This document shows, in pieces, positions 18,301 to 21,300 of a DNA stretch of 64,000 nucleotides (position 1 is the first letter of the stretch; each line of letters begins with the position of its first letter). Below the pieces are notes generated by a model. It had not been told where the DNA came from, did no database searches, and saw nothing but the letters and a program-made list of their open reading frames with translations. The position numbers and the translations under genes were made by a program. This DNA is from Okamejei kenojei (taxonomy: Eukaryota): positions 14,198,001-14,262,000 of the forward strand of contig CM069167.1 of assembly GCA_035221665.1 (NCBI GenBank), in the 5' to 3' direction.

Positions 18301-21300
18301 GGTTACAATGTTATTATTGTCCCTAAATTTACCCTTTATATCTTCTTGTTGGTTGGCCTTGTATTGTTTACTATGTTATGCATTCATTATTTTCGAATTC
18401 TGCTAAATTAATTGAATTCTGTAAATCACAATAAATTATTTCCTTAATCTTAATGACTTTACGAATCATGCATGCAGCAAGAAGTGGTAATGCCTGGAGT
18501 TCCCAAATCACCACTTGTGAGACTTAATATCTTTGAGGATCCCCCAGGTTATTTAAATATCATTCATTCTTAACTATCTTTGTTCTTTTCTTGCCTATCA
18601 GGTTCGTATGTTCTTTCATGTCTGTTTTACAAATTGTTTGGTATTTGATTAATTAAACTCGACATAATTTGATGTTGCATGATATTAATGATGTGGTATA
18701 TTTAGCCCAATAGTTCCATGTTCCAAAAGTAACACCCCCTTTTGTAATATGTTAATAGTTGTTTGTTAATGTTTAATACCGCATCTACTTGTGCAGTACT
18801 TAATGCATTGTTGTATCAAATATTGTTCATCGTATATGACTCGTTCCTGCAACAAGGTGGTTTGCACATTTTAGTGTAGCAGTGTTCGTTGACCTAGCGC
18901 TGTTTTTCATTGTTAAGGACATGATATAAATTACTATGATCTGCGCAAATTAGTTCATCTTATTCATCTTGGCATGAGTATTTTGACAACTAATTTACCA
19001 TATTCTGCGTCCTTTTAGATATACCCCAATGTATTCAAAAGATGAAAAGACAAAGTTTTTTGTTTTTTTAATAAATACTTTTCCATTTTTTCCACAGAAT
19101 TCCGATCAGGAAAGGCACCCATCCTAATTGCAACTGACGTTGCATCTCGAGGTTTAGGTTTGTACTTGACTTGTTTATAGACCAAGCTCTGAATTGTTCT
19201 AACTTGGGAGAACTGGTAGTTAAAGTGATGAACCATGATTTCCTCGCCATCTTGAGTGTGTTAACTAAGTGGCTTAATTTTGTTTTTAAATATCTCTTTG
19301 TTTTTATATTAAGGTACAGGCCTGCGGCAAGGCCTAGGCATGACAAAACGAGCACCAAGAGGGAGAGGAGATATCCATCTACCGCCACCTACATAAACCA
19401 AGCTTAGCCTTACCGCGTGGGGCCTTTAACCCCTATGCACTGGGCTGGCTGTCCAAAATTTGGGGTCTTGTTTACGGATAATGTTTACCCCATCTGCCGT
19501 TATCCAGCTCGCCCTGGCACTGTCTGGTTCAACCTCTGCAGTAGATTGGTTTGTTAAATAAATAGGGTCTTCAGATAATGTGTTTGCCAACTGACTGAAT
19601 TTCCATCTTGACCTGGTCATATTGGGATTAAGCCCTGTTCCAGGCTATTTTGGAGAGCACTGTATAGGGTGCTTCAGAAATTCTGAATGGAGCTGAATTT
19701 ACAGCTGACCGAACTCTCGATTTAGTTGAGATTTTTGATACACGATAGATTTTGCCCGTTTCTGACAAGGGATATTTTAATTGTGGGAATAATGTATTTA
19801 TTTCTGAGTGGTTACTAAGTTTAACCCAAGTGCAATTTAATGGAGAATGTAAGATCACCCAAGATTACCCAAGTAGAAATGAAGCCTTTCCTCTTGATCG
19901 CTATATTCTCTTTTTGAAATCTGGATTTCAATTAAATGATGGAATCCACACCGTGACATCAGCTGCTTTCTACACAATACCAATTATTCTGTGTAATGTA
20001 TGTGAAAGTAGCTAGAGGATGTAAATTAGATGTTTGGAGCCTCCAGTAATGTTATGTAGGTGCGGGGAACCTTGTCTTTTGATGGGCTCGGACACTAGAT
20101 CAGTAACATTGGATGATAAATGCTTATGACTTCCATTGATGGTGTTGGTTTACTATTGTCACGTACCGAGATACAATGAAAGCTAAAGCACTTCCAGTTA
20201 AAGAGCTTGCATTTGTAAGTGATTACCTTCAACTGGGTTTGAGTGTAGAAGTCAGCAGTCTATCCAATGTTTGAGTACTGGTAGTTCTGCAATGTGTGTT
20301 TTTGTAACACAAATTGGATATAACATAATTTATGAATCTGCAAACACTGTATTAGGTTGGGTGAATTGGTTATAATGGAATTTCAGTTGGGAACTAGAGA
20401 ACCATATGAGTTACTTTGGAAATTTACAAGTCAAGGAAAACCCCGTTGTGGAAAAAAACTCGGGAGGGGAAGGGAATTTTTTACTGTAACCTTCCCTCAA
20501 TAATCAGACACGGTTGTCTCTTAAGAACACTGGTTTCGCCATAGGCATCGGAAATTGGCAAGCAATAGTTTCTATTGATACATGTGCAATATCAAACAAT
20601 GCACATAGCTAGATCCTTAGTATTTCTAGCTTACAGTAACAAAATATACTTATAGCTATTTTTTTTTAAAAAAGCTATGTTTGAATATCCTGTGGGGGAA
20701 AATAACTTAATTATGGTGAGTCCGAAACTAATCCCATTTCCCAATTGCTTTTACGATGTGATTTTCCAAAACACAAGGTTTCCTGGGAACGCAACTATTG
20801 CATTATCGCAGAACTACCTGTATTCTGGCACCTGATGGCCTTGCAATGTGCTAGGATTAGATTGTTTTTTAACTATGTGGATACTACTTAACCATGTATC
20901 CCCAATGTTGTTTGAAAGAGATCTTTTACCACTCGGCTACTTCAGTTGTCTAACAGCTGGAATTCAGTATAACCTCAGTTTTTTTAATAGACAAGCGTCA
21001 TTATCTGAAACCCTGTACGTTGAAAACCAGCACAAGCCAATTCCTAGATCAGAAAATTGAAAGCAACCAAATTTCCCTTGTTACAATTTGACCTTTTCCT
21101 CATTCAAATCTGACACCGTTAATAATTGGTTTACTTCCTGAAACTAAGGGGCGTGTGGAAATGTCTGCTAATTAGGGGTTTCACACCGCGCACTGCATTT
21201 AAATGGCAGGCCAGTTCTGCAATCAAACTGTTAAGTGACTCTGAGCTAGAAATAAACCTTTCTAGCCATTGATATGGATGGGAAGACTATGCATGGACTG

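Follow-up and report, generated by a model that had tools for sequence, protein, structure and literature searches.

How might the RNA helicase genes DDX5 and DDX17 hold their own and each other's output in check through a single intron? DDX5 and DDX17 steer the splicing of many genes and are elevated in cancers. Reports of feedback through this intron go back to 1995 for yeast DBP2 and to 2007 for human p68 and p72, and the accessible parts of that literature name no cis element; Barta and Iggo in 1995, Rossler in 2000, and Moore in 2011 are said to have described the intron regulation of DBP2/p68/p72. We approached the question in a 64,000-nt stretch of Okamejei kenojei DNA (assembly GCA_035221665.1, contig CM069167.1, positions 14,198,001 to 14,262,000, forward strand), called the window here and used for all positions below, which holds a DDX17-like gene on the + strand. 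An original prediction had placed near the start of intron 11 of this gene a cryptic acceptor, a conserved motif, and a local hairpin, together forming a candidate poison exon. We find that the acceptor is used. We give an even chance to the reading that the motif, here called arm A, is one strand of a long-range duplex and the likely sensor of DDX5/DDX17 helicase activity.

An alternative acceptor in a heavily retained intron

Exon 12 (25464 to 25699, + strand), delimited by its sequence and by spliced joints, carries helicase motif VI (HRIGRT). Its best solved match is human DDX17 (E = 5.5e-41), with 3 differences from that chain in the 70 residues after the first, and it is joined to a further exon (loose read ends at 25698). 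Exon 11 (19098 to 19157, + strand; 60 nt) is likewise seen in spliced joints in RNA reads, and its donor, TAG/GTTTGT, is weak, matching 6 of 9 consensus places. Between the two lies intron 11 (19158 to 25463, + strand; 6306 nt), which is strongly retained. Two further genes served for comparison. The first is a paralog on contig C23 of the same genome, whose exon 12 is 79% identical, whose exon ends at the same place, and whose intron 11 has 1266 nt, near the 1236 nt that human DDX5 coordinates imply; we label this DDX5-like paralog DDX5 by that length and by its residues. The second, L012, is an amniote-type DDX17 locus from metagenome contigs with a complete intron 11 of 4218 nt, one of 80 loci kept from a scan of such contigs for a related exon 12.

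We used raw RNA reads from a related species (organism C, 0.77 of sampled words), consisting of four runs from two studies; 1 to 5% of each run was examined over the region 19040 to 25700, and joints were listed from 3 reads up. As had been claimed, a U-rich tract (19277 to 19313, + strand) ends in TTAAG at 19313, with the acceptor AG at 19312-19313; a further AG follows at 19318-19319, just past it. The proposed junction, 19157 to 19314, was present in the reads with GT..AG ends in three of the four runs (4, 5, 1, and 0 reads), with 3 and 4 distinct start places in the two bulk runs. The canonical joint between exons 11 and 12 was found in 76, 149, 1, and 5 reads of the same runs. The alternative joint thus makes up 10 of 241 spliced reads, or ~4%, the other 231 being canonical (per run, 4/80, 5/154, 1/2, and 0/5). 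Translation of exon 11 joined to 19314 runs, again as claimed, to a premature TAA (19394 to 19396, + strand) that stands upstream of a later exon junction, and motif VI, in exon 12, is thereby lost.

Unspliced RNA was abundant. Depth at 19306, upstream of the acceptor, was 32 and 45 in the bulk runs, versus 76 and 149 canonical joints. For the closest organism, a single contig covered intron 11 in both of two contig runs, at a depth of 108 and 297 versus 524 and 1489 for the spliced joint, and intron 10 was nearly empty; these contigs are uninformative on the rare 19314 junction, as joints there are crowded by an intron 10 repeat. Retention alone leads to a stop 21 nt inside intron 11. [quoted passage not shown] An opposite-strand joint, 20364/20800, also appeared in all four raw-read runs (10, 9, 1, and 1 reads); it could be explained by a small inversion in the relative or by template switching over an intron 11 duplex.

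The original prediction had made the segment after 19314 a cassette exon. No joint from the intron interior to exon 12 was among the three listed joints in any of the four raw-read runs, at the three-read threshold and with nonsense-mediated decay (NMD) active. As the reads show no donor leading back to exon 12, we describe an alternative 3′ splice site and not a demonstrated cassette. Donor-like sites occur from 19848 onward, the first (7/9 consensus) lying 535 nt from the acceptor. A human event points the same way: the accessible part of one study lists a DDX5 intron 11 acceptor at chr17:64501891, 118 nt into the intron, from which the RNA continues, with no donor in between, to the end of exon 12 (PMC12894984). 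That acceptor is rare, with 48 versus 14,592 canonical reads in one triplicate and 36 versus 1,387 in the other (PMC12894984, as far as accessible).

Two other uses of the acceptor were considered. It might open an alternative last exon, with its end near 23100, that yields a short DDX17 without motif VI and is kept for its peptide. The distance and frame from acceptor to core are equal in the two DDX17 genes, and the peptides of 19313 to 19393 and L012 2969 to 3049 are similar; third codon positions account for 8 of the 15 differences, and 5 of the 12 changed codons are silent. Bulk depth holds to ~23050 and then drops ~ninefold, and single-cell reads carry poly(A) tails at 22488-22503 and 23086-23107, with 84 and 67 reads piled up at 23105. 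Both places (22488 and 23105) are on genomic A-rich stretches, the latter abutting the conserved arm D described below, and no AATAAA or ATTAAA was found within 300 nt upstream of 23105, so that internal priming fits; from these reads it cannot be told apart from true 3′ ends near 23105. The stop, moreover, comes after 27 residues here and after 111 in L012, DDX5 is in another frame, and a weak protein search found no protein with this tail. We consider an alternative last exon improbable. Still less probable, in our view, is that the AG/GT at 19312-19315 is a recursive splice point for stepwise removal of the intron. AG/GT is present here and in DDX5, whereas L012 has AG/GC; the remade donor would be poor against the consensus, the first step would take out no more than 156 nt, and the DDX5 intron is just 1266 nt long to begin with.

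Conserved blocks in intron 11

A 21-mer from the motif had two matches in the 2.76-Gb genome at up to 2 mismatches, and a control also had two, so the count alone is that expected by chance. The second match, however, lies behind an AAG 115 nt into intron 11 of the DDX5 paralog, and because it sits there we take the motif to be more than chance. The motif matches the paralog's intron 11 at 49 of 63 positions (E = 4e-6) and the amniote-type intron at 50 of 59 (E = 3e-13). The claim that the motif also follows an acceptor in DDX5 intron 11 therefore stands for the DDX5 of this genome; for human DDX5, the match of 118 nt to 115 nt into the intron is by acceptor coordinate alone. Exact scans for the motif gave no match in the metagenome contigs, none in viral contigs, and five in prokaryote genomes, which we took as chance.

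The upstream introns of the window gene and L012 have no blocks in common, only exons. Within intron 11, six blocks align (E at most 0.006), at 19319-19377, 21698-21735, 21798-21823, 21867-21883, 23113-23137, and 23241-23400. The 17-nt block 21867-21883 is identical in L012 (E = 0.006) and adjoins a donor-like TAG/GTCAGT at 21863. The blocks were found in none of the other 79 of the 80 metagenome loci. Two of these, L014 (5262 to 7000) and L020 (566 to 2937), are non-vertebrate-looking DDX5/17 loci in which the same exon end is followed by a long intron lacking the vertebrate blocks; the intron position is common to DDX17 here, DDX5, L012, L014, and L020. The DDX5 and DDX17 paralogs appear to have the pairing arms described below in common by descent.

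A predicted long-range duplex beside the acceptor

The original prediction paired the motif (19318-19339) with a nearby segment, 19402-19425. These arms do pair in the minimum-energy fold of 19290 to 19440, but the structure is not conserved. That 151-nt fold is unexceptional (z = −0.84; 34 of 200 shuffles as good). The arm-to-arm duplex, at −29.5 kcal/mol, was equaled in 20 of 1000 shuffles of the 150 nt that follow and in 13 of 200 whole-intron shuffles, which is borderline for an arm picked after the fact. Local pairing of the motif was borderline here (17/300 shuffles) and at chance in the two homologs (149/300 and 147/300). The local 3′ arm (19402 to 19425, + strand) pairs with arm A in this window only; it is not among the six blocks and could be aligned in neither L012 nor DDX5.

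A conserved partner was found farther away. Arm A (19311 to 19345, + strand), whose core GGCCTAGGCATGAC is invariant in all three genes, would form the 5′ strand of predicted duplex 1, and arm B (21677 to 21738, + strand), a distal block with the invariant sequence GTCATGTC, the 3′ strand; arm B was delimited by the BLAST block against L012, by alignment, and by pairing. Both arms fall among the six intron 11 blocks that align with L012. A purine-rich inner arm (19359 to 19366, + strand) is predicted to extend the duplex by pairing with 21677-21684. Arm A and arm B (21697-21738) are ~2.4 kb apart here and 0.5 to 2.4 kb apart across the genes. Pairing energies were −40.6 kcal/mol here, −43.3 kcal/mol in L012, and −39.8 kcal/mol in DDX5. 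In each gene, none of 500 shuffles was as good, nor was any other window of the intron (0/2034 here, 0/1338 in L012, and 0/353 in DDX5). When every arm A was paired with every arm B of the three genes, each was best with its own, whether compared by row or by column (3 of 3 each). In L012 and in DDX5, B was the best partner across the intron in all 27 combinations of arm and window size.

Ensemble folding gave 22.6 expected A-B pairs here, 34.3 in L012, and 24.4 in DDX5, and 9.3, 16.3, and 13.6 for the inner extension. Once the distal arm was included, the local hairpin was left with <0.5 expected pairs here. We therefore hold it improbable, if slightly less so than an alternative last exon, that the site makes a short cassette poison exon that starts at 19314, folds as the local hairpin 19318-19425, and is spliced to exon 12. 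The acceptor is used, the local duplex is matched by only 20 of 1000 shuffles of its surroundings, NMD would mask the downstream joint in untreated cells, and donor-like sites do exist from 19848; the local arm, however, is missing in both homologs and loses out to the distal one, no exon 12 joint was listed, and the nearest donor-like site (7/9) is 535 nt off.

Outside the invariant core, A-B pairing was matched by 12 (here), 104 (L012), and 2 (DDX5) of 1000 shuffles; in DDX5 the sequence of the outer helix differs and its pairing is kept (2/1000). Over the 21 positions of one fixed register, a single double change, A-U versus G-C, separates this gene from DDX5, and a few changes affect one side only; 3 positions fail to pair here, 5 in L012, and 2 in DDX5. 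The structural comparison rests on these three genes (DDX17 in the window, DDX17 in L012, and the DDX5 of this genome), and three sequences cannot establish covariation. The acceptor lies 2 to 6 nt from the start of the predicted helix or, in L012, inside it. By these folding predictions, duplex 1 is firm in L012 and in DDX5 and contested in this window. A second strong partner for arm A, 21968 to 22023, is present in this genome only and lies outside the conserved blocks.

A second predicted duplex upstream of a poison-exon homolog

Two further conserved blocks, arm C (21807 to 21823, + strand) and arm D (23113 to 23132, + strand; ending in CAG), would form the 5′ and 3′ strands of predicted duplex 2. 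With blocks defined by conservation, 1 of 500 shuffles here and 0 of 500 in L012 were as good. C and D were best partners in 16, 15, and 8 of 18 settings in the window, L012, and DDX5, respectively, and duplex 2 has 9.4 expected pairs in DDX5. The cross-pairings A-C, B-C, and B-D were at chance in DDX17, and A-D was modest (3, 8, and 3 of 500). We regard duplex 2 in DDX17 as a firm prediction. It follows directly after duplex 1 and ends just upstream of the poison-exon homolog; both predicted duplexes together would loop out ~3.6 kb.

The human DDX17 poison exon, chr22:38489223-38489458, was validated by reverse transcription-PCR and has donors separated by 5 nt and a further acceptor at +35 nt, according to the accessible part of the report (PMC12894984). 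In L012, AG 5594, AG 5629, and a pair of GTs give a 236-nt exon ending at 5830, and this exon (5595 to 5830) fits the human geometry in its length of 236 nt, its 5-nt donor spacing, and its second acceptor at +35 nt; it aligns with ~23190-23396 here. Its acceptor is buried in a predicted hairpin (5560 to 5605, −21.7 kcal/mol). The homologous region of the window (23165 to 23396, + strand) has a hairpin at 23165-23193 that keeps a 7-bp core without that AG, and it retains the +35-nt acceptor, at 23224, and the donor, CTG/GTAAAT, at 23396. No joint at 23165-23396 was among those in the relative's reads. The human exon is like the present site in its intron and in unproductive splicing, and differs from it in position: we rejected the idea that 19314 begins the known poison exon, which maps ~3.9 kb downstream. 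In the skipped-exon table, which covers only cassette-type events, the 10 DDX17 rows include no acceptor near the start of the intron (PMC12894984). The CAG at 23132 was also tried as the acceptor of the human poison exon and dropped, since the 236-nt geometry fits L012 5594; its use as an acceptor was not seen in the relative's RNA reads.

This arrangement suits another explanation, in which the duplexes are real and form a static bridge or scaffold that sets retention and poison exon use without helicase sensing, 19313 being a seldom-spliced decoy. The poison-exon homolog begins shortly after the tandem duplexes end, the depth of retained RNA (32 and 45) is far above acceptor use (4 and 5 reads), and 21 nt of retained intron suffice to reach a stop. 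Long-range pairs are also reported, in the accessible part of one paper, to set poison exon inclusion in BRD2 and BRD3 (PMC10789245). Two things speak for sensing instead: both duplexes lie at AG dinucleotides, as in a plant sensor described below, and the host genes themselves encode RNA helicases with reported intron-linked feedback. We think the static arrangement unlikely, though it is the alternative that we take most seriously.

Evidence that weighs against a conserved duplex sensor

Several results count against reading arms A to D as a conserved, helicase-responsive structure. Of the 27 settings in the window, B comes out as the best partner of arm A in only 11, with 14 favoring a non-conserved site near 21972 and 2 the local arm, and pair probability peaks at 0.56. 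The test that gave −40.6, −43.3, and −39.8 kcal/mol used arm extents set after the pairing had been seen; with conservation-defined blocks and both shuffled, A-B was weak (26/500 here and 94/500 in L012), and a 60-nt arm against the shuffled whole intron was matched by 5/60 and 23/300. In the outer part of the duplex, the window's arm with the B of L012 (−17.8 kcal/mol) beats the L012 pair itself (−15.9 kcal/mol, 104/1000). There are three sequences only, most pairs are invariant, and the non-pairs of L012 include the double-change position. Duplex 2 is best in only 8 of 18 settings in DDX5. Here and in DDX5, the used AG falls just outside the helix. The RNA reads come from a relative and from two studies, with 10 junction reads in all. 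Finally, DDX5 is reported, in the accessible part of one study, to control DDX17 via NMD in a way that needs ATP binding and not helicase activity (PMC3763533).

Some of these points would also be expected if the conserved blocks were protein-binding sites or splicing enhancers whose complementarity is incidental: the core is invariant and not covarying, the unbiased A-B block test is weak, and competing partners exist in the window. Incidental complementarity fits poorly with the 27 of 27 settings in each of the two other genes, with the preference of each arm for its own partner in cross-pairing, and with duplex 2 passing the unbiased test. We judge it distinctly less plausible than a static bridge.

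A possible helicase sensor

In the sensor model, when helicase levels are low the duplexes would be closed and the internal acceptors poorly used, and the weak exon 11 donor would be joined to exon 12. When DDX5/DDX17 levels are high, the duplexes would be opened and the internal sites would compete for the exon 11 donor; the competed RNA would keep the intron or be spliced into a form that carries a stop and would undergo degradation. Arms common to both paralogs would explain how DDX5 can cross-control DDX17. The logic of the sensor is borrowed from a plant RNA element, the DEAD motif, and from p68 depletion data in HeLa cells.

The plant DEAD motif occurs in DRH1/RH14 and RH46, where, in the accessible parts of the two reports, a hairpin hides an alternative acceptor and helicase activity is needed (bioRxiv 10.64898/2026.01.23.701338; PMC12218528); DDX5 is given there as DRH1's closest homolog in humans (bioRxiv 10.64898/2026.01.23.701338). 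As here, the motif is found in a DDX5-type helicase gene and its paralog, an alternative 3′ splice site lying at the stem base in a long intron, and it yields alternative 3′ splice site, cassette, and retained forms with premature stops. Pairing next to the acceptor is another likeness, the helix predicted here lying 2 to 6 nt away or, in L012, covering it. The plant element, however, is one local hairpin of 19 to 20 bp with a loop of 3 to 5 nt, backed by covariation and functional proof, whereas here the partner is 0.5 to 2.4 kb away and there are two predicted duplexes.

In HeLa cells, p68 depletion clears partially spliced p72/p82 RNA, so far as the accessible text goes (PMC1920232), and DDX5 is described in similarly partial sources as lowering its own and DDX17 mRNA in intron-linked feedback (PMC1920232, PMC4695336). 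The DBP2/p68/p72 intron belongs to the same gene family and, as here, is a retained long intron; the accessible parts of that literature name no cis element or structure, whereas specific arms are proposed here. BRD2 and BRD3 resemble the present case in having conserved long-range pairing beside unproductive splice sites. The BRD2 and BRD3 pairings were gained independently, whereas the DDX5/DDX17 arms appear to be inherited and the host protein unwinds RNA.

Other features of the window

A 318-codon open frame at 15200-16153, in the intron before exon 9, presumably represents a non-LTR (long terminal repeat) reverse transcriptase fragment. A high-copy repeat at 17450-17680, in intron 10, attracts thousands of RNA reads from elsewhere. 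An Rfam search of the window found no family at the acceptor site; its sole match, U2-like, was a 98-nt U2 small nuclear RNA match at 46851-46948 that is barely over the gathering score and is likely a truncated copy.

Significance

Intron 11, its retention in DDX17 and DDX5, the feedback, and a poison exon are already known from sources that were accessible in part. A full-text literature search, judged by titles and opening lines, found no description of the duplexes reported here. The A-B and C-D pairs may already figure in a genome-wide list of complementary regions, such as the human catalog (PMC8052449); the main text of PMC6097662 names neither DDX5 nor DDX17.

Two defined duplexes, common to paralogs and to distant vertebrates, make the question of the cis element directly testable. 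We suggest, tentatively and at somewhat less than even confidence, that vertebrate DDX5 and DDX17 may have inherited tandem duplexes that mask internal acceptors and act as a physical sensor for self- and cross-limitation; these would be an animal counterpart of the plant DEAD hairpin and would supply the cis element so far missing from DBP2/p68 intron autoregulation. If this is true, a structural dose switch in these genes would be a useful handle, potentially one that antisense oligonucleotides could switch.

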